Part shown: piece by piece, positions 3,024 through 20,894 of the stretch
How the letters are laid out: every line of letters starts with the position of its first letter
Numbering within the stretch: the stretch's first letter is position 1
Source of the DNA: Candidatus Eiseniibacteriota bacterium
Lineage (GTDB): Bacteria; Eisenbacteria; RBG-16-71-46
Direction: 5' to 3'
Length of the DNA stretch: 64,000 nt
Assembly: GCA_963717505.1 (NCBI GenBank)
Contig: OY970342.1
Location: forward strand, 2,240,001 to 2,304,000
Notes under the pieces: model-generated
Databases searched by the model: none
The model's input: the letters and a program-made list of their open reading frames with translations, nothing else
What the model was told of the DNA's origin: nothing
Position numbers and translations under genes: made by a program

Positions 3024-3156
3024 ACCGCCGTGCTTGGCGCGCTCGCGGGTTTCGGCCCGCGGGCGCGCCGCCGGAAGGAGCCCAGGTATAATGGCGCCCG
3101 TTTGCAATGACGATCCGCATGGCTGGGTCGTGCTGCGCGAACTCGAGGTGCGCCGA

Positions 3157-4737
3157 ATGACCTCTGATTCCGAGCGATTGTCGCAACAGCTGATCGAATC
3201 CCTGCGAGCAGTGCTCTGCCAGGTGGCGGAGCCCGACGCGGTGCTCCGGGCCATCCTCGATCAGGCCGTCGCCTTCACGCAGGCCGAGCGTGGGCTGTTC
3301 GTCGAGGTTGCCGAGCAAGGGGAGATCGTCTATCGGGTGCTGCACGGTTTCGAGCCCAAGAACCTCGAGGGCGAGCGAGGCCGCTTCAGTCGCAATCTGT
3401 TCAAGCGGGTGCTGGAAGGCGGCACCGAGATCGTGATTGCCGACGCTCGAGATGACGTGTTCTATCAGGTGTTCGCGTCGTTCCGGGCCTTGCGCACTTC
3501 GTCGATCCTGTGCGTTCCGATCCGCACGTCCCGCGGCATCGCCGCGATCGTCCACCTCGAGCATCGCAGCATCGGGCACTTTGGACGCGATCACGTCCAG
3601 ATGCTGCAGTACCTCGTGGACCTTGCCGGCCCGGTGCTCGAATCGCTGAGGGCCGGACGCGAGATGATGCAGGAGCGCGATCGGCTGCGACTGTCCGAGA
3701 CGCAGTATCGCTCCGAGGCCGAGGAGAACCGGCGGTTGCTCGCGTCCGAATGGTCGTTCGGGCGCTTCGTCGGCCGCTCGGCGTCGGTGCGCAGCCTCGA
3801 GGACACCGTTCGCAAGGCCGCCGCAACCGACTTCCCCATCCTGATCCTGGGCGAGACCGGCACCGGCAAGAGCATTCTCGCGCGCGTGCTGCACTACGGT
3901 GGGCCCCGGGCCGCGGGGCCGCTGGTCACGGTGTTCTGCCCTTCGCTCGAACGCAGCATGGTCGAGCCCGAGCTGTTCGGCCACAAGCGTGGCGCGTTCA
4001 CCGGTGCGGTGAGCGATCGTCTGGGCAAGGTCCCGGCGGCCGAGAAGGGCACGCTGTTCCTCGACGAGATCGGGGAGCTGCCCCTGGAGATCCAGCCCAA
4101 GCTCTTACGACTCCTCCAGGAACGAACCTACGAGCGCATTGGCGAGGCCGAAGAGCGGCGCGCCGATGTTCGCGTGATCGCTGCCACCAACCGCGACCTC
4201 GAGGCGGAAGTGCGTGCGGGCCGATTTCGTCGCGACCTGTTCGAGCGCATTCACTACATCCCGATCCGGATCCCGCCCCTGCGCGAGCGGGTCGAGGACA
4301 TTCCGTTGCTGCTGCGCCACTCCCTGGATCAGACGGATTCCGGGCGCTGGATCGAGCCGTCGCCCGAGGTCTGCGATTACCTCAAGGGTCTGGCGTTCTC
4401 CTGGCCCGGGAACGTGCGCCATCTCGAACAACTGGCGGCGCGCATGACGATGGAGGGGTGGAAAGGAGCGGTTCGGGTCGACGACGTCGTCCGTCTGCTG
4501 GGTGCCGGCATCGCCGGCGAAGGCGAGCCACTTGCAGCTGGCGATGGGGAGCGTGTCGAACTCGACGCGGGGCTGCCCAGGCTCCTGGAAGCCGCGGAGC
4601 GCAAGTGGATCGAGGAGGCGATTCGTCGCTACCCCGACCTTACGCGCGCCGAGGTCGCCGCCAAGCTCAAGATCAGCGAGTCGGCGTTCTACAAGAAGCT
4701 TCGCCACCTTGGGCTGGGAGGGCCGGCCTCCACCTGA
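3157..4737 (+). CDS. Sigma-54-dependent activator (GAF-AAA+-HTH)
   Basis: GAF region (SILCVPI), Walker [30 protein letters not shown]-terminal HTH; TATAAT at 3087-3092. Confidence 0.93.
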
Positions 4738-6868: not shown

Positions 6869-8125
6869 ATGCAGGTTGAAGTCATCACCATCGGCAACGA
6901 AGTGTTGTCGGGCCGCACCCTCGACACCAACTTCGCGTGGCTGGCGCGCGCGCTCGAAGAAGTGAGCGTGCGCGTCGGTTGGCACTCGACCGTCGGCGAT
7001 TCGGCCGATCGGATCGGCGACGCGCTGCGCCGGGCACTCGATCGTGCCGACGCGGTGGTGACCACCGGCGGCCTCGGACCCACGCCCGACGACCTGACGC
7101 GCAAGGCCGTGGCCACCGTGCTCAGTCGTCCGCTGCGGCTCGACGAAGACGTGCTGCAGAGCATTCGCGAGCGGGTGAAGAAGTTCGGCCGTGCGATGCC
7201 GGCATCGGTCGAGGCCCAGGCGCTGCTGCCCAAAGGGGCGCAGGCGTGGCCAAACCGTCAGGGCACGGCCCCGGGGCTTCTGATTCTCGAGCGCGACAAG
7301 CCGCTGATTCTGCTCCCCGGCGTGCCCTACGAAATGGAAGGGCTCGCAAGCGAGTTCGTCGTGCCCTACCTGCGCGAGCGCGCCGGCCGGCGGGTGGAGG
7401 TATTCACGCTGCGCACCGCCGGTGTTGCCGAGAGTCATCTGCACGAGAAGATCGGTCCCATGCCGCAGACCTGGCCCGGTGCGGCACTCGCCTACCTGCC
7501 GAGCTTTTTTGGCGTCGACCTGCGCGTGACGGTGACCGGCGACGACCGGGCGCAGGTCGAAGCGGTCGCCGGGCGCGCCTACGACGAGCTGCGCGCGCGC
7601 GTGGCGTCGGTGATGTACGCCGAAGGCTCGACTCCGATCGAGCAGGTCGTGGCCGAGACGCTGATCGAGCAGGGACGAAAGCTGGCGGTGGCCGAGTCGT
7701 GCACCGGCGGGCTCATGGCCAAGCGCATCACCGATTTCTCGGGCTCGTCCAAGTACTTCGAGCGGGGCTTCGTGACCTATTCCAACGAGTCCAAGGTGCA
7801 ATTGCTCGGCGTGCGCGCCGAGGACATAGCCGCCCACGGCGCGGTGAGCGCGGTGGTCGCCGAGCAGATGGCGCGCGGTGCGGCGGAACGCGCGGGCGTC
7901 GAAGCCGGGGTCGGCATCACCGGCATCGCCGGGCCCGAGGGTGGCTCGGCCGAGAAGCCGGTGGGCACCGTGTTCATTGCCGTCCACACGCCGGGGGGCA
8001 CGGCGGTGCGGCCGTACCGCTTCGTCGGCACGCGCAACACGATTCGCGAGCGCGCGGCGCAGACCGCCCTCGACTTGCTCAGGCGGCACCTGAAGGGATT
8101 GCCGCTCGATCCGCGTCTCGGTTAG
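6869..8125 (+). CDS. cinA: Competence/damage-inducible protein CinA (MocF + NMN deamidase)
   Basis: IGNEVLSG..DTN, GGLGPTPDDLT, LPGVP, AESCTGG, TYSN, GIAGP. Confidence 0.96.
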   Translation: MQVEVITIGNEVLSGRTLDTNFAWLARALEEVSVRVGWHSTVGDSADRIGDALRRALDRADAVVTTGGLGPTPDDLTRKAVATVLSRPLRLDEDVLQSIRERVKKFGRAMPASVEAQALLPKGAQAWPNRQGTAPGLLILERDKPLILLPGVPYEMEGLASEFVVPYLRERAGRRVEVFTLRTAGVAESHLHEKIGPMPQTWPGAALAYLPSFFGVDLRVTVTGDDRAQVEAVAGRAYDELRARVASVMYAEGSTPIEQVVAETLIEQGRKLAVAESCTGGLMAKRITDFSGSSKYFERGFVTYSNESKVQLLGVRAEDIAAHGAVSAVVAEQMARGAAERAGVEAGVGITGIAGPEGGSAEKPVGTVFIAVHTPGGTAVRPYRFVGTRNTIRERAAQTALDLLRRHLKGLPLDPRLG

Positions 8126-8157
8126 GCCCATGCATTCGGCCGTGCGAGGTATGTGAC

Positions 8158-8757
8158 GTGGGTGAACCGAAGGCAGCGCACCGCGTGTTTCTCGCGGTGT
8201 TCCCGCCGGAAGGCGTACAGCGCGCCGCGCACGCCTTGGGCGAGTCGCTGCGGCGCGACGGTGACGGCGTGTCGTGGGTCAAGCGCGACAACCTGCACTA
8301 CACGATGCGTTTCATCGGCGATGTTGGCGACGACGGATTGCGACGCGTGGCCGAGGCCGCGGCGACCACTGCCGAGCGCCATGAGGCATTCGACGCCGAG
8401 CTGGGCGGCATCGGCGCGTTTCCGAACACAAGGAAGGCGCGCGTGATTTGGCTAGGGATGACGGCGGGCGAGCGGGCGATGATGGAACTCGGGCGCGACC
8501 TCGAGGCGGAACTCCGGCGGCGCGGATTCGAGAAGGCCGAGCGGCCGTTCACTCCGCACCTGACACTCGGGCGCGCGCGAGTGCCCGGCCGCGACTGGAC
8601 GGAGGAGCTGGAATTGGCACGAGTCGCAGGCGCGGTGCCACGCTTCCGAGTCGATCGGCTGCTGGTGGTCGAGAGTCAGTTGTCGCCAAAGGGATCGATT
8701 TACACGGTCAAGGGCGAGGGAAAGTTGGGAGTATCGGGCAGCCAGCCCGTGCGGTAA
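8158..8757 (+). CDS. thpR: RNA 2',3'-cyclic phosphodiesterase (2H family)
   Basis: Two HxT motifs (LHYTM, PHLTLGR), GAFP; usual position after cinA. Confidence 0.92.
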   Translation: MGEPKAAHRVFLAVFPPEGVQRAAHALGESLRRDGDGVSWVKRDNLHYTMRFIGDVGDDGLRRVAEAAATTAERHEAFDAELGGIGAFPNTRKARVIWLGMTAGERAMMELGRDLEAELRRRGFEKAERPFTPHLTLGRARVPGRDWTEELELARVAGAVPRFRVDRLLVVESQLSPKGSIYTVKGEGKLGVSGSQPVR

Positions 8758-8766
8758 CCTCGTTGC

Positions 8767-10497
8767 ATGCCATTCGTCGCCCGTGCAATCGCGACGAGCC
8801 TCCTCGCTTCGTCCCTCGCGACACCGGTTGCGGCCGCCTGGCCGCCGCTCGGCGGCCTCGGCGTCACGGTGTGTGACACGACCGGCTTCCGAAATGGACT
8901 GGCTAGCGTCGGGGATGGTTCCGGCGGCGCCTATTTCATGTGGCTCGACTGGCGTGATGAGGCGAACCGACGGTTCTTCGCCCAACGCGTGAGTGGATCC
9001 GGCGTCGCGTTGTGGCTGGCCAACGGCATCTCGGTGGGCTCTACGATGGCGTTCATCCACCCTTCCGTTGGTGGCGGCCCCCCGGTCATCGTCAGCGACG
9101 ACCAAGGCGGCGCGCTCGTTCTTTGGAGCGACTTTCGCGCCGACACGGCCGGCAACCTCTATGCGCAGCGGCTCGCCCCCGACGGCACGCTGCTCTGGGG
9201 GCCGGACGCTGTTCCCGTGAATCTCGGGCCCCGCCACGAAGTCAGCTTCGTGGCCGAGAGCGATGGCGCGGGCGGGATGTTTGTGGTGTGGCGCGATGAC
9301 CGTGACAGCATTTTCACGACACGCGCGCAGCGGGTGGATGCGGCAGGCAGTCTGCTTTGGGGCGAGGACGGCGTCGTCGTGTGCCCCAACCATTTGTCGC
9401 AAACGAGTCAGAGGCTCGCATCGGACGGTTTGGGCGGCGCGCTGGTCGCCTGGACGGAGGTTCGGGGTGGCCAGATTCATGGGTTCGCTCAGCGATTGAA
9501 CGCAGGAGGCGAGCCGCAGTGGGCCACACTGGGCGTTCAACTCTCGACCTCGCCACACGGGACCTTCGTGAATGACATCGAAGCCGACGGTAGCGGCGGA
9601 ATGGTGGTCGCATGGCTCGACTATCGGTCGCTGAACACCTGGACACAGGCCTTTGCACAGCGGGTGACCGCAGACGGCAATGTCGCATGGGCTCCCGACG
9701 GCGTGAGCCTGAGCGGGACCACTTGGTACGTCAATGAGACGTTCGTGCTGGGTGACGGCAATGGCGGCGCGATCGTCGGGTGGCAGGACTACAGGAACAA
9801 CGGGTGGAATGCCGCTATGGCTCAACGACTCTCGCCGACGGGAGCGAAGCTGTGGACGCTGCCGGCGGTCGAAGTTGGGCAGAGTTTCGGCGGCAGCGGC
9901 GTCAACCAGGTGAGGATGCTCGCCGACGGCGCCGACGGAGCGGTGTTCGTATGGAATTCAGACGACGGCGGCGACGTTAGCGACGAATATTCCATTTACG
10001 CACAGCGGGTCGGTTCGACCGGTGCGCCGATCTGGTCGAGTGGCGGGGTGGTGCTCGCCTCCCTACACCGGCTCGCCGGCCAGTTGGTTGCGGTTCCAGA
10101 TGGCAGCGGAGGTGTGGTCGCCGGATGGCTCGACCAAGCCGGATTCGGGGGCCCGCCCAGATACGCGGCCCAACGCGTTGCGGGCAGTGGCACGTTGAGC
10201 GTGCCGCAACGTGAGGAGTCGAGTTTGACGCTGGCATGCGTGCCGACGCCCGCCCGCGCGAGCGAAGGCGTGGAATTGCGCCTTGCGCCGGTGGTGGGCT
10301 CGCGCGTTGGCGTGGGGATTTACGACCTCGGTGGACGGTTGGTGCGCTCGTTCGACGAGCCGATGGTCGGAGCCACGGGCCGGCTGCGATGGGACGGACG
10401 GGACGCTGAGGGCCGCTCGAGCCCGCCGGGCCTTTACTTTGTAACGGTGCGCTCGGGCATTGGGGTTGGCCGGGCGAGAATCGTGATCGTGGAGTAG
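8767..10497 (+). CDS. Secreted repeat protein with C-terminal FlgD-Ig/T9SS-like domain
   Basis: Signal peptide; ~8 repeats of DGxGGxxxxWxD...AQR...GxxxW; tail IYDLGGRLVR..WDGRD..GLYFV. Confidence 0.8.
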   Translation: MPFVARAIATSLLASSLATPVAAAWPPLGGLGVTVCDTTGFRNGLASVGDGSGGAYFMWLDWRDEANRRFFAQRVSGSGVALWLANGISVGSTMAFIHPSVGGGPPVIVSDDQGGALVLWSDFRADTAGNLYAQRLAPDGTLLWGPDAVPVNLGPRHEVSFVAESDGAGGMFVVWRDDRDSIFTTRAQRVDAAGSLLWGEDGVVVCPNHLSQTSQRLASDGLGGALVAWTEVRGGQIHGFAQRLNAGGEPQWATLGVQLSTSPHGTFVNDIEADGSGGMVVAWLDYRSLNTWTQAFAQRVTADGNVAWAPDGVSLSGTTWYVNETFVLGDGNGGAIVGWQDYRNNGWNAAMAQRLSPTGAKLWTLPAVEVGQSFGGSGVNQVRMLADGADGAVFVWNSDDGGDVSDEYSIYAQRVGSTGAPIWSSGGVVLASLHRLAGQLVAVPDGSGGVVAGWLDQAGFGGPPRYAAQRVAGSGTLSVPQREESSLTLACVPTPARASEGVELRLAPVVGSRVGVGIYDLGGRLVRSFDEPMVGATGRLRWDGRDAEGRSSPPGLYFVTVRSGIGVGRARIVIVE

Positions 10498-10611
10498 CCC
10501 CTAGGGCCTTCGGGCTCCGATCCGGTTTTTCCGCTTGCCCGCGGCCTGGGGTAGGCCTAGCCTTGACGGGCGTTCCGTTAGCCCCCGACCCCTAAGCCGG
10601 GATGCCACATG

Positions 10612-10743
10612 GCCGAATCCCCTCATCCCACACGGAACCTGTTCGCGACCCCATCGGGGCAGACTCGTGCTGCCCGGGCGGGGTCTCGGTTTCTTCCGGC
10701 GGCTCTGCCCCCGAAGCCGAGCCGCGCAGCACGGAGAGGGGAT
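10612..10743 (+). ncRNA. Candidate structured 5' leader upstream of the peptide gene
   Basis: Nested helices 10617-24/10736-43, 10666-73/10726-33, 10685-93/10713-21; possible pseudoknot 10656-63/10704-11. Confidence 0.4.
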
Positions 10744-10761
10744 CTCCGAAGGAGCGAGGCG

Positions 10762-11052
10762 ATGAAGAAGCATGGCCGGCCGTGGTGGCTGGCGGTCGTG
10801 GTCGCGGTGGGGATGACCGTGATGGCGGCGGGGGTGGTGCAGGCGGGGCGGATCCCACTTCCGGAACGAGGTGGCTGGAAGTTGGGTGATCCGGATGATC
10901 CTCCGTCCCAGGTTCGACGGTCTCCTGCAATGGAAGTTGTGGTTCCTGTGGAAGGACGTCCGTACGGTGGACTTCTTCTGTGGCTCTCCAGGTGGGGTGT
11001 CTTGCCCAATCCAGTCTTGAAGAGGCTTGGTGAGAATGATCGTTGGCACTAA
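10762..11052 (+). CDS. Small secreted protein (96 aa) with GDPDDP motif; candidate signalling-peptide precursor
   Basis: RBS AAGGAG; basic n-region, hydrophobic h-region, VQA cleavage site; stop overlaps the start of the TPR regulator. Confidence 0.7.
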   Translation: MKKHGRPWWLAVVVAVGMTVMAAGVVQAGRIPLPERGGWKLGDPDDPPSQVRRSPAMEVVVPVEGRPYGGLLLWLSRWGVLPNPVLKRLGENDRWH

Positions 11053-13490
11053 GGCCCAAGTCAGCGCACTTCGCGAGCTGATCAGGTCCAATCATTGGTC
11101 AGCCGACAAGAGTGCAGTCGACGGGGCAGTTTTGGCTTGCAGCGAAGGACTCTGTGACCGCGGCGAACCCGAGGTCGCAATCGAGCTCATTACTGATTGG
11201 ACCGACCGAAACCCAATCGGGCTTGGGTCGGTCCAGCTAATGTCGACTTTGGCGCGGGCTCACCTCCTTCTGGCCCAGAATGACGATGCACTCCTCATTG
11301 TGAGGAGAGTCCAGAACGACATCGGTGATGAATTGGTACACAGTTCCGCTGAATCCGCGTACTTGCGAATCTGGGAGGGAGTAGCGCTGCGGGGCCTGAG
11401 TCGCACCGACGAATCGGAGTCGGTACTAATGGCGGTGCAAAGGGAACTCATTGCGAGGCCGGACTCGCGGGCACTGGGGACCTGCGCGTATCAGCTTGCA
11501 GCAACTCTTCTAGTTGGCGGCAATCGCGTTGCTGCCAAACGGTGGCTGTTGGACGCCATAGTGTCTGCCCGTCGTTGCCGCGATCCACTACTCGAGGCGA
11601 ACGCTTTGCTCGCCCTTGCGATGATTGAGAGATTCCATTGTCGCTGGCCCAACGCCATCGAGGCGGCGACTGAAGCGGCTACTCTGGCTCGGGGAATTGA
11701 TGGTGGCTTGGCGGAATGTCATTCGGCGAGAGCGCTGGCCATCACCGCTTGGAAGCGCGGGCGCCTAGAGGAGGCAGAAAGAGCCGCGGCTGCGTATCTG
11801 TCTGCAACGCGCAGTGCTGGAGCGCAAGACATCAAGTGGGAGCAGTTCGGCGCTCTGCTGATTGGAATGATTGCACTTCATGCCGGTCGGACTTCAGAGG
11901 CTGCTCTTGTGTTTGGATCGATCGATGGGCTGCCAACCGGGGGCCTTGAGTCCCGTCCGTCCCTCCTCACCTCCGAATTCCTCGGCGACGTCCATCTCGA
12001 ACAAGGCCAAGCCGCCGAAGCCCTGCGCTACTACGACGAAGTCTTCCCCAAAGCCATGGCGTTGGTGCCCAAGGGCGACATCGTCGCCGAGCTGCGCCGC
12101 CGCCGTGCCGAGTGCTACCTGCTCCTCGGCCGCAACGAAGACGCGTACGACGAAGCCAAGACCGGCCTCGAGCACTGTCGCGAGCTGGGCGATCGCTACG
12201 AAGAGGCGGCGACCTATCGCGTGCTGGCACTGAGTGCCGCGGCAATGGGCAACGCGACCGAGGCCCACCGCTGGTTCGAGCAGGGTTTCGCCTACTACGA
12301 CGACATCGAGACGCCGTACGAGTGGGGCAAGTTGTGGCTCGCGTACGGCGATTGGCTCATCGGACCGAATGCCGGCGAGTACACGAACGCCGCTTCGGCG
12401 CACGAAGCCTGGCACGCGGCGCGCGACCACTTCGAGCGCATGGGAGCCAAGGCCAAGCTGGCCGAAGCCGAGGCTCGCATCGCCACCATCCCGGCGGCGC
12501 GCGCTGCGACGAACAGCCACCCACGCCGCCGCCCGCGGGGAACCGCCGAGATCGAGCGGCGATCAAACTGGGGGTTCGAGACTTTCGGCCTGGTCACCGA
12601 ACACCGGCCGATGCTCCATTTGCTCGAGCAGGTCGCGAAGCTCGCCAAGTCGCAACTCGCCGGTGCTGATTCTCGGCGAATCGGGAACCGGCAAGGAGCT
12701 GATCGCCCACGGCATCCACAAGCTCTCGGTGCGCGCGGGCACGTTCATGCCCATCAACTGCGCCGCCCTGCCGCGTGAGGTGATCGAGAGCGAGCTGTTC
12801 GGCTACGTCGCCGGTGCTTTCACCGGCGCAACGCGCGAGAAGGCGGGGCTCCTCGAAGTCTGCCAGGACGGCACCGTGTTTCTCGACGAGATCGGGGAGA
12901 TGCCGTTCGAGCTTCAGGCGCGCCTCCTGCGATTCCTCGAGACCGGCGAGCTGCGTCGCGTGGGTGCGACGCGCAACCTCAAGGTGCAGACGCGGGTCGT
13001 TGCAGCGACCAATCGCGATCAATTGGCGCTCGAGAAGGGCGAACACCTGCGGCGCGACCTCTACTACCGTCTCGCGCACGGAGTGGTGGCGCTCCCGCCG
13101 CTCCGGCAGCGCGGCGACGACATCGGGCTGCTGATCGCCCACTTCCTCGACGAAGCATGCGCCGAAGCGGGGCGCGAAGTTCGGCTGAGCCTCGAGGCCG
13201 AAGAGATTCTGCGCGAGCACTCGTGGCCTGGGAACGTTCGTGAGCTGAAGGGCGTGCTCCAGCGCCTCGTGATCTTTGCGGTGGATGGGCACGAGATCAC
13301 TCCCGCCGAGCTGGAGCTGGGTACGGCCACCGCTCCCTCGACGCTGCTCGAGGAACTGGCCGAAAGCGAGAAGTTGCGAATCGCTGAAGCACTCAAGCAG
13401 GCCCGGAACTCCCGGACCGACGCGGCCAAAGCACTTGGAATTCCCCGAACGACTCTGCTCAACAAGATGAAGCGTTACGGGCTGAGTTGA
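11027..13490 (+). CDS. TPR-repeat sigma-54 activator (TPR-AAA+-Fis HTH), split by a 1-nt frameshift at ~12653
   Basis: TPR-like helices in ORF 11027 up to ..QVAKLAKS, continuing in ORF 12234 as NSPVLILGESGTGKE, GAFTGA, FLDEIGE, WPGNVREL, LGIPRTTL. Confidence 0.88.
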
Positions 13491-13521
13491 GTTCGACATC
13501 CGGCCGCAGCGGGAGGGAGCC

Positions 13522-15570
13522 TTGAAGCAGTTTCTATCGGCTCTGATGGGAGCTGCTGTGTTGGTGCCGTGGCTGACCGCCACGTCGGCGGGCGCAGCGT
13601 GTCCGGGGATCGATCTTCTTGGCCAGCCCTCTTTCTACTTCGTTGGCGAGAATCCTTTTCACACGATAGTTGCTGACTTCAACGGCGACGACATTCAGGA
13701 TTTGGCAGTCACCGTAAATGGCACGAGCCACATCGGCATCCTGATCGGTCAAGGAGACGGAACTTTCGAGAACGTGGTTCTTTACTCAGTGCTGCCGGGA
13801 AGCGGCCACCTTGTGGCCAAGGATTTCAACCTCGATGGATACCTGGATATCGCCACGAACAGCGGGGCGACGAACTCCATCACCGTGCTTCCTGGCAACG
13901 GCGATGGCACATTCGCCGCTCCTTCATCTGTTCCGGTGCACGGCCAGGCGCCCTACGGAGTCACGAGTGGCGATTTCAACAACGACGGCATCCCCGATCT
14001 GGCTTCTGCCGACCTTCTCTCCGACGCGGTCTCCGTGATCCTCGGTCAGCCCGGCGGTGGATTCTCGGCGCCCTTGAGTTTCGGCGCCGGTGTCCACCCG
14101 TACGACATCCAGACCGGCGATTTCAACGAGGACGGAAATGCCGACTTGGTGGTCTCGAATCAAAACAGCCAGAATATTTCGATTCTGCGCGGGGTGGGCG
14201 ACGGCACGTTCGACAATACGCTGAACTACCCGGTGGGGATCTATCCGTACAAGATCGCGCTCGGGGACGTCAACGGCGACGGCACCTTGGACCTCGCGGT
14301 AGCCAACGGTGGCAACGCGACACTCACGATTGTCAGGGGCAACGGTAGCGGCGGTGTTGGGAACGGGACCTTCGCTCAGCCTCTCCACGTCTACGCGGGA
14401 GGCGTGCCGCGCAGCGTCAGCATCGGGTTTTTCGACGACGACCCGATCCTCGACCTCGTGGTTGCCGATTCCGATGGCACCGTAGGGATTCTGACTGGTT
14501 TCGGGAACGGCCTCTTCCTGGGTCCCTACACTTTTCGGGTTGGCGGGCACCCTACGGATGTTGCCGTCGGGGATTTCAATGGCGATTTGAAGCTTGACGT
14601 GGCAGTTGTGCGGTACCCCGAATCGATGGAAATCGCGATTCTGCTGAACCAGTGCGACAATCCGCCGCCCGGTCCCGAGCCGGTCCTGACTGAGGTGCGC
14701 GACGTTCAGAACGACCAAGGCAAACGCGTACTCCTCTTGTGGCAACGCAGCGCGCTCGATTTGCCTGGGTACTCAACGATCACCGGCTATCGCGTTTGGC
14801 GCCTCAACGGAACGACCGCCATTTGGGAGGAGCAGGCCACTGTGCCCGCGGTGCAGCTCCCAGAATATAGCTTTGAGGCTGCGACCACCCAGGACTCTTT
14901 GTCCTCGAGCAACCCCTACACGGCCTTCTTCATCTCAGCACTCACCACCGACCCCGACACGTTCTACGAATCCAACGTCGACAGTGGCTACTCAATAGAC
15001 AATCTGCCGCCGGACGCCCCAGTAGGATTGAGCGCCATCACCACGGCGGGTGGGGTAGAGCTGACGTGGACGCCGAACTCCGAAGAAGACCTGGATGGCT
15101 ATCATGTCTATCGCGGGCTGACACCCGACTTCGTGCCAGGTCCCGGGAGTCTGATCGGTCCTTCCACGATCACGACGTTCGTCGACTCAGAGGGCAATTC
15201 CTCGCACTTCTACAAAGTCACCGCAATCGACTCCCAGGGCAACGAGGGTTCAACGGCGCTCGCGGCCGCCGGTCCGTACACCGGAGTAGGCGATGCCCCA
15301 TTCTTGTTCGCCCTGCGCGGCGCGATGCCCAACCCTTCGCGTGACGGCAGGTTCTCGGTCTCGTTCAGCCTGGCGAATTCGTCTCCGGCAAAGATCGAGT
15401 TGATCGATGCCGCGGGACGGCGAGTTCTCGAGAAAGCCCTTCACGGACTCGGCGCCGGGACGCACACGATCGACCTGGGGCGGCAGCGGTCGCTCCCCGA
15501 GGGGCTCTACGTCTTGCGTCTGTCGCAGGCAGGAAGTGCGGCTTCGTCGAAGGTCGTGGTCCTGAAGTAG
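13522..15570 (+). CDS. Secreted FG-GAP/VCBS repeat protein with FN3 and T9SS-like C-terminal domain
   Basis: Signal peptide; repeated GDFNxDGxxDL; [19 protein letters not shown]; [20 protein letters not shown]. Confidence 0.88.
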
Positions 15571-15595
15571 GCGGGCGACCGCTCCAGACGCCCTC

Positions 15596-15623
15596 TTGAC
15601 GCCAGTGCACATCCGTGTATCAT
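15596..15623 (+). promoter_or_regulatory. recA sigma-70 promoter with overlapping putative LexA box
   Basis: TTGACG-16 nt-TATCAT; imperfect palindrome TGCAC-ATCC-GTGTA at 15606-15619. Confidence 0.65.
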
Positions 15624-15691
15624 GGCGCCACCCGAAGGAACGGGACCCCGTCCCGGCACATGACGAAGCCCCTGCGAAGGAGACGCAGACC

Positions 15692-16831
<1,140 letters not shown>

Positions 16832-16890
16832 ACCAAATGCTTCATTGCCCCCTGAGAATGGACCTAGGCCAGAGCCAAGGGAGGGTCCCA

Positions 16891-17475
16891 GTGGGTGATC
16901 TGAGTCGAGAAGCCGTTGAAGTGGCGGTTACGCTTCTCCCCGGATTCCTTTCCGTCAAGGTGAAGGACTTCTTCCGTCCACCAAGGGAGCTGCCGACTTC
17001 TGACATGTTTCTCGAAGTTGTTGCGTTCTCGGTCGCGAACTATGTGATCGCCTCGATCGTGCTTTCCCTCTTCAACTCCAGGGTGGGGGTGTTCCCCGAA
17101 TCGCTCGTGAACCTCGGTTTGTCGTCCCTGGTTCTAGGTATGGCGAGCGGGATTGTCGTGGGGAATGACCTCCATTACCGTTGGGCGAGGTGGTTCAAGC
17201 TGACAACGAGGACGGGGAGAGACGATGTCTGGCAGGATGCCTTGGGAGACATCAGCGGCAACTGGATGCTCATTCATCTCGCAGATAGTCGGCGTGTCAT
17301 GGGGTGGGCTCGGTACTATTCAGACAATGGCAAGTCGTCTTCTGTGTTCTTGAAGGACGCGTCGTGGGTTGAAGACGACGACAGTATGATTCCAATTGAA
17401 GGTGAGGGTGTCCTGGTCACGGAGGCATCCCAAATCCGATACGTAGAGTTTCTGGGTCAAGGAGTCGACGAATGA
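16891..17475 (+). CDS. DUF6338-like membrane protein
   Basis: N-terminal LLPGF, ~3 TM segments, VW..WMLIHLAD..GW..YYS..VFL..GVLV..IRYVEF tail; atypical codon use. Confidence 0.7.
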   Translation: MGDLSREAVEVAVTLLPGFLSVKVKDFFRPPRELPTSDMFLEVVAFSVANYVIASIVLSLFNSRVGVFPESLVNLGLSSLVLGMASGIVVGNDLHYRWARWFKLTTRTGRDDVWQDALGDISGNWMLIHLADSRRVMGWARYYSDNGKSSSVFLKDASWVEDDDSMIPIEGEGVLVTEASQIRYVEFLGQGVDE

Positions 17476-17636
17476 AGAACCAGCGCGAAGACCAACACAA
17501 CGCAGTCAAGGGCACGACGCGTACTCCAGCCAAGGTCAACCGGGGGGGGCTTGGCATACCTCCCAAAGGCAAGTTACCGCCGCGACCAACTCCAAAGCCT
17601 GGGCGTGGAAACCATCAGGCAGAGAGCACCGGTTAA
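17472..17636 (+). CDS. Small Pro/Lys/Arg-rich peptide (54 aa)
   Basis: ATGA overlap with the upstream stop, GGAG RBS; MKNQREDQHNAVKGTTRTPAKVNRGGLGIPPKGKLPPRPTPKPGRGNHQAESTG. Confidence 0.5.
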   Translation: MKNQREDQHNAVKGTTRTPAKVNRGGLGIPPKGKLPPRPTPKPGRGNHQAESTG

Positions 17637-17674
17637 GGGCTCCTGACTGCTGAAGCGCCGCCCGTGCAGATGAA

Positions 17675-18154
17675 ATGAGCAATTCCTCTCCCGATCCGTG
17701 TCGTGAAGCGGCGCTCAAGCTGCTCGAACGCACCCGCCGCACGCGTGGCGAGCTGGTCCGCAAGCTGCGCGAGAAGGGCTTTGCGGCGCCCGCGATCAAC
17801 GAGGTGCTCGATCGCCTCGCGGGCGTCGGGCTGGTCGACGACGCCGAGTACGCCCGGGCGTGGCTGCGCGGACGTTGGGGGCGCCGTGCCGCTGGCTGGC
17901 GCAAGCTCGAGATGGGTCTGCGGGGGCGGGGCATTCACCCTGAGGACATCGCGCGTGGCCGCGCCCTGCTCGAGGCCGAGATGGGCCCGGCTGACGAGGT
18001 CACGGCTGCGCGCCGAGTGCTCGGTCAGGTCGAGCGCCGCTACGCCAAGCTCGATCCCCGGGTTCGTCAGCAAAGGCTCTACGCGCTGCTCGCCCGGCGC
18101 GGCTTCGACGGCGACGTGATCCGTGCGGCTCTAAAAGAAGGGGCGCCGGAGTAG
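17675..18154 (+). CDS. recX: Regulatory protein RecX
   Basis: ALKLL..RTRGEL..KL..KGF, GLVDDAEYA, LARRGF. Confidence 0.93.
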   Translation: MSNSSPDPCREAALKLLERTRRTRGELVRKLREKGFAAPAINEVLDRLAGVGLVDDAEYARAWLRGRWGRRAAGWRKLEMGLRGRGIHPEDIARGRALLEAEMGPADEVTAARRVLGQVERRYAKLDPRVRQQRLYALLARRGFDGDVIRAALKEGAPE

Positions 18155-18197
18155 CGCTTCCCCGGGGCACCGGGACCCATTATCTTTGCCGGCCGTC

Positions 18198-20894
18198 ATG
18201 CCCACGACCTCTTCCGTCCGCACCGCGGCCGAGCTGCGCCGCGCCTTCCTCGATTTCTTCCAGCGCCAGGGGCACGTCGAGGTGCCGTCGTCACCGCTGG
18301 TGCCCAGCGATCCGACCATGCTGTTCACCACCGCCGGCATGGTGCAGTTCAAGCCCTACTACACCGCCGCCGGCGACGTGCCCTACACGCGTGCGGTCTC
18401 GGTGCAGAAGTGTCTGCGGCTCACCGACCTCGAGAACGTCGGCCTGACCCCGCGGCACGACACGTTCTTCGAGATGCTCGGCAACTTCTCGTTCGGTCCG
18501 CGCGAGAAGGGCGCCTACTTCAAGGCCGAAGCGATCGCGTTCGCCTGGGAGTTCGTCACCAAGACGCTCGGGCTGCCGAAGGATCGCCTGTACGCGTCGA
18601 TCTTCGAAGGCGAGGGCAAGCTGCCGCGCGACGACGAGGCGATCGAGCTGTGGAAGAAGATCGGGCTTCCGGCGGACCGCATCGTGCCGCTCGGGCGCAA
18701 GGACAACTTCTGGGGGCCGGCCGGCGGCGCGGGCGCCTGCGGGCCGTGCAGCGAGATCTACTTCGACCTGGGCGAGAAGCGTCCCGACTATTTGCCGGCC
18801 GGCACGTTCTGGGGCGAGCGTCCCGGAGATCCGGGCGATCGCTACATGGAGTTCTGGAACCTGGTGTTCCCGCAGTTCGACGCGGCCCCCGACGGCACGC
18901 TGACGCCGCTCGCGCGCCCGGGCATCGACACCGGCATGGGGATCGAGCGTCTGGCGTTGATCGTCCAGGGCAAGAGCACGATCTTCGAGACGGACGTGTT
19001 CGAGCCAGTCGTGAATGCTGCTCTTATGCACTTCGGGAGCCCGGGACCTGAGCACGTTCGGGCGGCGCGAATAATGGCCGACCATGTTCGAGCGCTCACG
19101 TTCGCCATGACCGAAGGTGTGCTGCCGGGGAACGAGGGTGCTGGCTATGTCTTGAGGCGGCTGTTAAGGAGAGCGATCGCCCGCTACAAGCTTGTCGGAG
19201 GAACGGGGTATCCGGTTCTTGCGGTCCTCTCTTCAATCGTTGTGGATGTTTTCGAGTCCCACTACCCACAACTTCGTTTTCGCGAGCAGTTTGTACAGGC
19301 GGCTCTCAGAAGCGAGGAAGAGTACTTCAATCGAGCATTCGAGTCCGGATTGGCGAGGCTTGAGGAGTACTTGACTAGAAGCCAGTCTGTCGCCGGCGAC
19401 GTTGCGTTCGAGCTGCACGACACCTACGGCTTCCCGATCGAGCTGACCGAGGAGATCGCGGCGGCGCGCGAGGTGGCGGTCGATCGCGAGGGCTTCGAGC
19501 GCGCAATGGACGAGCAGCGCGAGCGCGCACGCGCGGCCAGCAAGTTCGGCCGCACCGGCGAGGCACGCCCGTGGACGACGGCCATTTCGGGCGCCGATTC
19601 CGTATTCCTGGGCTGGACGTCGACGCGTGCCGAGGGCCTCGCCGTCCGCCGCTGGCGGGAGTCCGATGCGGGTACGTTCGAGGTCGTGCTCGATCGCACG
19701 CCGGTCTATGCGGAGTCGGGCGGGCAGGTCGCCGACCGAGGGACGCTGGAAGCTGGCGGCGCGGTTGCCGACCTGGTCCACGTCTACAAAGACGGCGAGT
19801 CGGTCGTCCACCGACTGAAAATGGCCTCGGGGAGTCGCGAAGCGTTCCTGGCCGCGGGCGCCAAGTCCGACGTGGTGGCCGAGGTTCCCGCGGCGCATCG
19901 GCTCCCGACCATGCGCCACCACACGGCGACGCATCTGCTGCACGCCGCACTGCGTACCGTGCTCGGCGATCACGTGCACCAGGCGGGTTCACTGGTCGCG
20001 CCCGATCGGCTGCGCTTCGACTACGCGCATTTCGAGGCGCCGAACCGCGATCAGCTCGACCGGATCGAGCGCCGCGTCGCCGAATGGATCCTGCGCGACC
20101 GCGAAGTGCGCTGGGAGATCCTGCCGATCGACCAGGCGCGCGCCAAGGGCGCGATGGCGCTGTTCGGCGAGAAGTACGGGGCTCAGGTACGGGTGGTCAC
20201 GGTCGACGGCGTCGCCGACGTCGGGATCGAACCCAGCCTCGAGCTGTGCGGCGGTACCCACGTGTCGCGCACCGGCGAAATCGGCGCATTCGCGATCGTC
20301 GACGAGTCGGCGATCGCGAGTGGCGTGCGCCGGGTCGAGGCGTTGTGCGGGCACGAAGCACTCGCGTATTTCAAGGCCCAGGGCCAGACGTTGGCGCGCG
20401 CGGCAGCCGCGCTGCAAGCGGCGCCCGCGCAACTGGTGGAGCAAATCGAAAAGCAGAAGGCTGAACTCGAGCGTCTGCGAAAGGAGCAAGCCGATGCCAA
20501 GCGCGGCGGACTCGAGGCCGAAATGACCGGCCTGGTCGCCGGCGCGAGTGCCGCGGCCAACGGTCGCTGGGTGGTGGCGGAGCTTCAGTCCGAGGCCGAC
20601 GCCAACGCCGCGCGCGACGCGGCCGACCGGCTGCGCGGGGCCCTCGGCCGTGGTGCGGCGGTGCTCGCCATCAAGAACCAGGGCAAGACCACGTTTCTGG
20701 CCGCGGTGTCGGACGATCTGGTCGCCGAGAAGAAGATGAACGCGTCCGATCTGGTCAAGCGCGTAGCGCAGGTGACCGGCGGCTCGGGCGGCGGCAAGCC
20801 GCACCTGGCGCTCGCCGGGGCCAAGGATCAGGGCAAGGTGGCCGAGGCGCTCGACGAGGCGCGCCGACTGCTCGCCGAGGCGCTCGGTTCGTGA
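18198..20894 (+). CDS. alaS: Alanine--tRNA ligase
   Basis: FTTAGMVQFK, HDTFFEMLGNFSFG, DTGMGIER, HHTATHLLH, ELCGGTH, GGSGGGKP. Confidence 0.99.
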   Translation: MPTTSSVRTAAELRRAFLDFFQRQGHVEVPSSPLVPSDPTMLFTTAGMVQFKPYYTAAGDVPYTRAVSVQKCLRLTDLENVGLTPRHDTFFEMLGNFSFGPREKGAYFKAEAIAFAWEFVTKTLGLPKDRLYASIFEGEGKLPRDDEAIELWKKIGLPADRIVPLGRKDNFWGPAGGAGACGPCSEIYFDLGEKRPDYLPAGTFWGERPGDPGDRYMEFWNLVFPQFDAAPDGTLTPLARPGIDTGMGIERLALIVQGKSTIFETDVFEPVVNAALMHFGSPGPEHVRAARIMADHVRALTFAMTEGVLPGNEGAGYVLRRLLRRAIARYKLVGGTGYPVLAVLSSIVVDVFESHYPQLRFREQFVQAALRSEEEYFNRAFESGLARLEEYLTRSQSVAGDVAFELHDTYGFPIELTEEIAAAREVAVDREGFERAMDEQRERARAASKFGRTGEARPWTTAISGADSVFLGWTSTRAEGLAVRRWRESDAGTFEVVLDRTPVYAESGGQVADRGTLEAGGAVADLVHVYKDGESVVHRLKMASGSREAFLAAGAKSDVVAEVPAAHRLPTMRHHTATHLLHAALRTVLGDHVHQAGSLVAPDRLRFDYAHFEAPNRDQLDRIERRVAEWILRDREVRWEILPIDQARAKGAMALFGEKYGAQVRVVTVDGVADVGIEPSLELCGGTHVSRTGEIGAFAIVDESAIASGVRRVEALCGHEALAYFKAQGQTLARAAAALQAAPAQLVEQIEKQKAELERLRKEQADAKRGGLEAEMTGLVAGASAAANGRWVVAELQSEADANAARDAADRLRGALGRGAAVLAIKNQGKTTFLAAVSDDLVAEKKMNASDLVKRVAQVTGGSGGGKPHLALAGAKDQGKVAEALDEARRLLAEALGS

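Follow-up and report, generated by a model that had tools for sequence, protein, structure and literature searches.

A small signal-peptide protein and a TPR-sigma-54 activator form a conserved gene pair that appears to carry a strain-exchanged block

Results

A small protein gene overlaps the start of a TPR-sigma-54 activator gene

In the window, by which we mean the whole 64,000-nucleotide stretch analysed here, two overlapping genes lie on the forward strand. The first (10762-11052) encodes a small protein of 96 amino acids, consisting of signal-peptide-like residues 1-28, a short proline-containing linker, the sequence GDPD and a variable tail of about 51 residues. An initial annotation had described a 96-residue signal-peptide ORF whose end overlaps the start of a regulator, and both parts were borne out: the hydrophobic N-terminus closes in V-Q-A, GDPDDPP is encoded at 10885, and with the activator ATG at 11036 the two genes share 11036-11052. 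Relatives of the small protein measure 86-125 residues, many of them slightly more than 100. By inspection, these proteins have a basic N-terminal end followed by a hydrophobic core and an A-x-A-like site, with a lipobox in one of the 57 compared, and we infer from these sequences that the small protein is exported by Sec.

Within the G-D/E-P-D motif (10885-10896, forward strand), G42 and P44 were invariant among the 57 small proteins. Glutamate replaces aspartate at the D/E position in 17 of them, which rules out autocatalytic Asp-Pro cleavage at D-P. The tail beyond the motif is 36-63 residues long, hydrophobic 10-35 residues past the motif and basic at its end (median net charge +6). Its reading frame is open, with stops in the two alternative frames in 49 and 42 of the 57 cases. 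A role for the tail as a membrane anchor was rejected, as a 19-residue hydropathy above 1.6 was reached in only 14 of 57. Searches of Pfam and NCBIfam assigned the small protein to no family, and an ESM Atlas search gave no usable match.

The second gene encodes a TPR sensor (11036-12652, forward strand; 24 predicted helices in residues 1-490, conserved from residue 305 onward) and a sigma-54 activator AAA+ domain with a Fis-type HTH (12654-13490, forward strand; Walker A GESGTGKE, GAFTGA at 12813, Walker B FLDEIGE). Pfam matched TPR_12 in the TPR part, Sigma54_activat (E 3e-55) and HTH_8, and no NCBIfam family scored above its cut-off. We read the activator as cytoplasmic because the window's copy lacks a transmembrane segment. 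The parts named in the initial annotation were therefore all present; their fusion in a single ORF did not hold for this copy, because the TPR frame (11036-12778) and the AAA+ frame, which runs to 13490, are offset by one base near 12653.

The extra base (within 12650-12656, forward strand) is very probably a sequencing error, because the assembly is prone to indels and other loci remain in frame: rpoN, which is present in this genome, is likewise split, frameshifts occurred in 3 of 32 genes tested against relatives' proteins (the activator among them), and the junction reads through in frame in all 29 other loci checked. Full-length homologues are 820-835 residues long and the window's receptor is about 817, of which some 490 form the TPR part. 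That the base is real and this copy a true pseudogene is improbable, and would concern this copy only, independently of any mechanism. The break does stand in the sequence, no near-identical contig in the sequencing reads bridged 12653, and broken copies exist elsewhere (L013, L088, L089 and L134); against this, further genes of the assembly are split along with rpoN, and both halves of the activator are otherwise intact. In L089 (G032:C1), about 1.3 kb of other DNA interrupts the activator between TPR residues 470 and 495.

The predicted sensor fold is shared with proteins outside peptide signalling

The TPR region was predicted as an all-helical superhelix (pLDDT 93.6). Its best structural matches were MalT domain III (Z 28.0; rmsd 3.7 over 359 aligned residues), APC (27.1) and APPBP2 (26.1). 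Peptide receptors followed, with Rap bound to its peptide at 25.6, NprR-NprX at 24.8 and AimR at 23.2, within an RRNPP range of 19.7-25.6. Since MalT domain III, APC and APPBP2 outscore Rap, NprR and AimR, the modelled fold is not specific to peptide signalling. Sequence likeness to RapJ (E 3e-6) and NprR (7e-5) is equally generic and ranks below LGN and kinesin light chain.

A promoter, a leader ORF and a conserved hairpin precede the pair

Upstream of the small gene lies a putative sigma-70-type promoter (10535-10563, forward strand; TTGCCC, 17 nt, TAGCCT), which is weak on its own, scoring below the threshold of a single-sequence scan, and conserved across relatives. In an alignment of 38 of the 50 available leaders, made without the most divergent clade, its TTG was invariant and TA..T nearly so, and 54 of 55 loci had the promoter pattern some 200 nt upstream of the small gene. 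A candidate leader ORF (10609-10761, forward strand) begins with a Shine-Dalgarno sequence and ATG about 40 nt into the predicted transcript. It is in frame with the small protein here; in most relatives it closes at a stop overlapping the small-gene start. A Shine-Dalgarno sequence with an early start codon was found in 45 loci, and the leader frame was open in 41 of these (38% expected), compared with 23 and 22 for the other frames. The distance from leader start to small-gene start (104 to 186 nt) corresponded to the overlap frame in 31 loci, to the in-frame arrangement in 12 and to neither in 2.

Inside the leader ORF is a long terminator- or attenuator-like hairpin with a U-rich tract (10647-10697, forward strand). 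The hairpin had z < -2 in all 38 leaders; its sequence varies freely, with the U-rich tract following it. All nine consensus pairs had two-sided changes, and covariation was 0.59, compared with 0.11-0.18 when the pairing was slid. Translation through the hairpin may gate expression of the pair. Searching the leader against Rfam gave no credible match, and CsrA control was discarded: csrA is present, but neither the leader nor the DNA behind the paralogues is enriched in GGA. A terminator-like site closing the upstream gene lies at 10510-10530. A contig from run X6 matches the promoter and leader at 97% identity but parts from the window to the left of 10522, which likely marks the left end of the unit.

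The pair recurs throughout two phyla

The host, an uncultured soil and water bacterium, encodes 27 sigma-54 activators, three of which have TPR N-termini. The idea that such paralogues would each be preceded by a peptide ORF was upheld, as all three TPR-type activators have an upstream signal-peptide ORF with G-D/E-P-D. The remaining eight matches of a genome-wide motif scan lie beside none of the other 24 activators, and the adjacency of small ORF and TPR activator exceeds chance.

A TPR match was found in 181 of 201 genomes of Ca. Eisenbacteria. The window's own subfamily (E <= 1e-30) occurred in 16 of 24 genomes of its family and in 0 of 16 from other families. It comprises 97 distinct loci, 62 of which, the window included, had sufficient upstream DNA to assess; conservation of the upstream ORF was confirmed at 59 of these (56 by motif and 3 with variant motifs on inspection). 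The small gene was missing beside three of the 62 receptors (L009, L024 and L133). At L009 promoter-leader-like DNA is joined straight to the activator, and L024 keeps the promoter and a partial leader.

More distant loci in the phylum numbered 40, two of them at a contig edge; 36 of the other 38 had a signal-peptide ORF, with GDPD or GDPT in 30. In a second phylum, which three named homologues suggest is Krumholzibacteria, the activator was present in 61 of 61 genomes and the upstream ORF at 28 of 29 assessable loci. A profile search of representatives returned family members and then generic TPR proteins. Two Acidobacteriota matches of a GTDB-wide scan were set aside as unrelated long TPR proteins without an AAA+ activator domain.

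The tail and the first sensor half lie in a block that appears to be exchanged between strains

Positions 10897-11947 (forward strand) form an exchangeable low-GC3 block that comprises the small-protein tail after GDPD and TPR residues 1 to about 305. Its left edge is the G-D/E-P-D motif, and on the right it ends in the loop that joins helices 15 and 16 in the 24-helix model of the sensor. From GC3 values of 0.79 for the signal peptide and 0.75 ahead of the motif, there was a fall to 0.63 past the motif and 0.64 across TPR residues 1-305, with 0.82-0.89 thereafter. A drop of more than 0.1 occurred in 61 of 69 loci. It is not obligatory for the block: L022 and L029 have block GC3 of 0.90-0.92, yet share 50-56% identity with L015 and L113, whose blocks are low in GC3. 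In this genome, the two other pairs are monomorphic and high in GC3 (0.83 and 0.85, no drop), and other families contain both conserved and low-GC3 versions of the pair.

Taking the 30 pairs with the most similar conserved halves (86-97% identity), we found N-terminal halves 29-70% identical, with saturated four-fold sites (0.61-0.83 vs 0.30-0.59). The sharpest case, between two short-read contigs for which a chimera is a formal possibility, is that of L130 and L131: nucleotide identity is 99-100% in the left flank (signal peptide and linker), returns to that level for 1.7 kb on the right, where the conserved half and downstream DNA lie, and is about 50-70% between these flanks. Their blocks share 47% protein identity (four-fold sites 0.73 vs 0.01), and the left switch in identity falls inside the motif's D/E codon, the right one some 15 codons short of residue 305. 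The L130 block is nearer to that of L026 (58%), and the L131 block to those of L123 and L124 (63-66%), than they are to each other. In run X2, a low-depth contig nearly matches the window to the right of position 11947 and is unlike it on the other side, and run X6 supplied a looser case of the same kind. Within one genome (G202), the N-terminal blocks of L227 and L228 differ, although the two copies share 100% identity along 1.6 kb from the conserved half and AAA+ domain. One of these blocks is at 46-54% GC, and the loop at these loci reads GAFSGA. Among 57 blocks only one pair exceeded 80% identity, so that nearly every locus has a different block.

These comparisons argue that the block is exchanged between strains, and that near-identical strains carry it in very different versions. 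The exchange would be among close relatives, because block and conserved-half trees mostly agree at clade level. Continuous local hypermutation is disfavoured by stretches of 151 and 213 nt within the block that runs X1 and X3 share exactly with the window (both runs belong to one study, which may include the source sample) and by two same-type pairs without a four-fold excess (0.53 vs 0.57; 0.32 vs 0.37), although L123 and L124 do show one (0.69 vs 0.37). Silent donor cassettes were not found in this genome by tblastn. GDPD as a DNA recombination site was ruled out, as its codons differ between alleles.

The tail tracks the sensor half among close relatives

The expected agreement between peptide and TPR sequences held in a nine-locus clade and did not extend to all pairs. 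In that clade, which was picked after the trees were seen, the 35 residues past the motif correlated with the TPR block (Mantel r 0.82, p 0.0004), whereas they showed no such relation to the conserved half (r 0.01). Residues before the motif tracked neither half there; among close pairs they tracked the conserved half (partial r 0.59). An AU test showed that the block rejects the conserved-half clade (p 0.0018), and the reverse test fell short of significance (p 0.09). When all 1596 pairs were taken together, the partial correlation of tail with TPR block was -0.03; it reached 0.28 and 0.59 only once pairs were restricted to those with conserved halves at least 80% and at least 85% identical, respectively. 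Joint exchange of tail and sensor half is as expected of a cognate pair; being adjacent DNA, they may also have moved together by linkage alone.

The initial annotation had singled out GDPDDP as the signal. This is unlikely, since the variation lies downstream of a motif that itself hardly changes; specificity probably lies in the tail of about 50 residues rather than in GDPD.

Neighbouring genes vary and target promoters are likely elsewhere

The suggestion that the flanking secreted repeat proteins are the outputs was not sustained. In a comparison covering 43 of 103 neighbours, these varied by locus (metK, yicC, tuf and others), and secreted FlgD-tail or FG-GAP proteins lay near only 4 of 20 larger loci. 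Sigma-54-like promoters were found downstream of the pair in none of 63 regions (1.4 expected) and upstream in 3 of 44 (0.9 expected). Because the neighbours are not conserved and a nearby sigma-54 promoter was not found, the target promoters are likely elsewhere in the genome. Members of the subfamily share a conserved HTH recognition helix, which is unlike that of both paralogues.

In the window, the unit is flanked by a secreted protein with a FlgD tail (8767-10497) and an FG-GAP protein (13522-15570, GC about 0.61). We take 6869-20894 to hold the unit and the secreted proteins between a cinA-like/2'-5' ligase-like pair and recA; recA and a recX-like gene presumably enclose a low-GC ORF (16837-17475). 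Another sigma-54 activator, with a GAF domain and GAFTGA, is encoded separately at 3034-4737 and has a close paralogue at G000:C1:842190. On the minus strand, long non-coding stretches follow both TPR-type paralogues (G000:C1:421100-421900 and 489700-490560); each contains a sigma-54-like site whose final letters are TGCT in place of TTGC.

Discussion

Relation to known systems

The initial annotation had proposed RRNPP-like signalling. The pairing is conserved, the predicted fold resembles that of Rap, NprR and AimR, and tail and sensor half appear to be exchanged together; membership of the RRNPP group did not hold. PMC10075063 gives five criteria for that group: a propeptide of 10-100 residues, a receptor of 250-500 residues, TPR repeats, adjacency and export. 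The small protein falls within the size range, the receptor contains TPR repeats and the genes are directly adjacent. However, the receptor is longer than the range allows, and the host belongs to Ca. Eisenbacteria rather than to Bacillota or their mobile elements. The pair is thus one that works like an RRNPP system and is not classed as one. As in Rap-Phr, NprR-NprX, PlcR-PapR and AimR-AimP, a small signal-peptide gene adjoins a cytoplasmic TPR regulator of superhelical fold, alleles are many (allele expansion is described for Rap-Phr in PMC5199041) and some receptors stand without a peptide gene. Unlike in those systems, the sensor is N-terminal to a sigma-54 AAA+ domain and HTH, the host is of diderm type and the variable determinant is about 50 residues long.

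The polymorphic layout is closer to that of two other loci. In the agr hypervariable region of Staphylococcus, as outlined in PMC3673130, the variable stretch takes in the signal and the 5' part of the receptor gene between conserved flanks, and the account of the comQXP pherotype locus of Bacillus (PMC6334282) gives the same arrangement. A variable stretch spanning the signal and receptor sensor between conserved flanks is also what we found. In contrast to those loci, whose receptors are membrane histidine kinases and whose stretch includes a processing gene, the receptor here has no membrane segment, the block contains no processing gene and nearly every locus has its own allele.

With its AAA+ domain, GAFTGA loop, Walker motifs and Fis HTH, and with rpoN in the genome, the activator resembles enhancer-binding proteins such as NtrC, NifA and PspF; it differs from them in that its input is a 24-helix TPR array with an exchangeable half and in that no adjacent target promoter was found. 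MalT, a STAND ATPase that senses maltotriose, provides in domain III the superhelical sensor that is the closest structural match, but MalT is not known to have an exported partner.

A candidate signal-receptor pair

We consider it somewhat favoured that the small protein is an exported, allele-specific signal and the adjoining TPR-sigma-54 activator its cytoplasmic receptor. This reading draws on the adjacency of the genes, their translational overlap, the signal-peptide-like start, the Rap/NprR-like fold and the exchange of the block. Sec would export the small protein, and GDPD would act as a common handle by which the protein is processed, taken up or docked onto the conserved C-terminal repeats. 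All or part of the tail would re-enter cells and be read by the matching N-terminal repeats, and binding would alter AAA+ activity at sigma-54 promoters elsewhere in the genome, with activation the more likely sign of control than inhibition. As C-terminal repeats, AAA+ domain and HTH stay the same, all alleles would share a single output. Judged from sequence comparison, small protein and sensor half likely constitute a private signal-receptor code that separates kin from non-kin. The fullest version, in which two sister diderm phyla use a many-allele kin code whose exported tag of about 50 residues is cut or gripped at GDPD, enters neighbours and is read by the matching TPR half, is possible and in our estimate doubtful. 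Such a code needs a route carrying the small protein across two membranes into the cytoplasm; the genome encodes four family-5 peptide-binding-protein genes, and we identified neither a processing gene nor such a route.

The signal reading is weakened by the tail, which is basic, partly hydrophobic and far longer than RRNPP peptides. A long tail would be more at home in an in-cell partner. PspA acts with PspF as an anti-activator, and by analogy the small protein might bind the TPR sensor before or instead of export, so that failed export or envelope stress would change sigma-54 activation. The re-import problem would then disappear, translational coupling through the start-stop overlaps would supply matched amounts, and monomorphic high-GC3 paralogues, including both other copies in this genome, would be accommodated. 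We nevertheless regard such an anti-activator or export monitor as unlikely, since it does not readily explain why strains would exchange alleles that diverge so strongly, or why nearly every locus has a different block.

The number of alleles, with a single pair of blocks above 80% identity, might instead reflect a TPR half that senses a foreign, fast-changing ligand such as a phage protein, the tail varying because it lies between recombination anchors. Receptors without a peptide gene and scattered genomic positions are compatible with this; we find it decidedly unlikely given that the tail frame stays open and keeps its hydrophobic-then-basic profile, that tail type tracks block type across lineages and that the pair persists in two phyla. 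Least probable of all is a module like those of polymorphic toxins and immunity proteins. GDPD would then mark the junction ahead of a variable, cationic tip that is passed to neighbouring cells, and the matching TPR half would both neutralise the tip and signal contact with self to sigma-54. Such a module would suit a motif that stays constant while the C-terminal tip beyond it and the adjoining gene part both vary within a single low-GC block, as well as a charged tail with a hydrophobic middle, but the tail is short, no toxin family matched, the neighbours scanned included no delivery apparatus and conserved high-GC3 versions occur throughout two phyla.

Gene-encoded peptide signalling to cytoplasmic TPR receptors has been described for Bacillota. 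If the signal-receptor reading is correct, such signalling extends to diderm-type soil and sediment phyla and is coupled there to sigma-54. In the full-text literature, a scope mostly outside subscription journals, we found no description of this pair for double-membrane bacteria, and the apparent exchange of the post-GDPD tail and the first 305 or so TPR residues as one block between strains is new. The identical-flank alleles L130 and L131 offer a ready comparison of cognate and non-cognate partners in which the specificity-bearing parts are located to the codon, and the many alleles make the pair a model for the diversification of signal-receptor specificity.

In family f7 (loci L032-L060), one HTH sequence, MKRTTLLYK, is common to conserved pairs of high GC (GDPT..) and to pairs of low GC, which suggests several inputs on one target. 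Some genomes hold two subfamily copies (L072 and L075 in G047 and G084; also G097), and L072 and L075 have a further TPR activator no more than 7 kb upstream.
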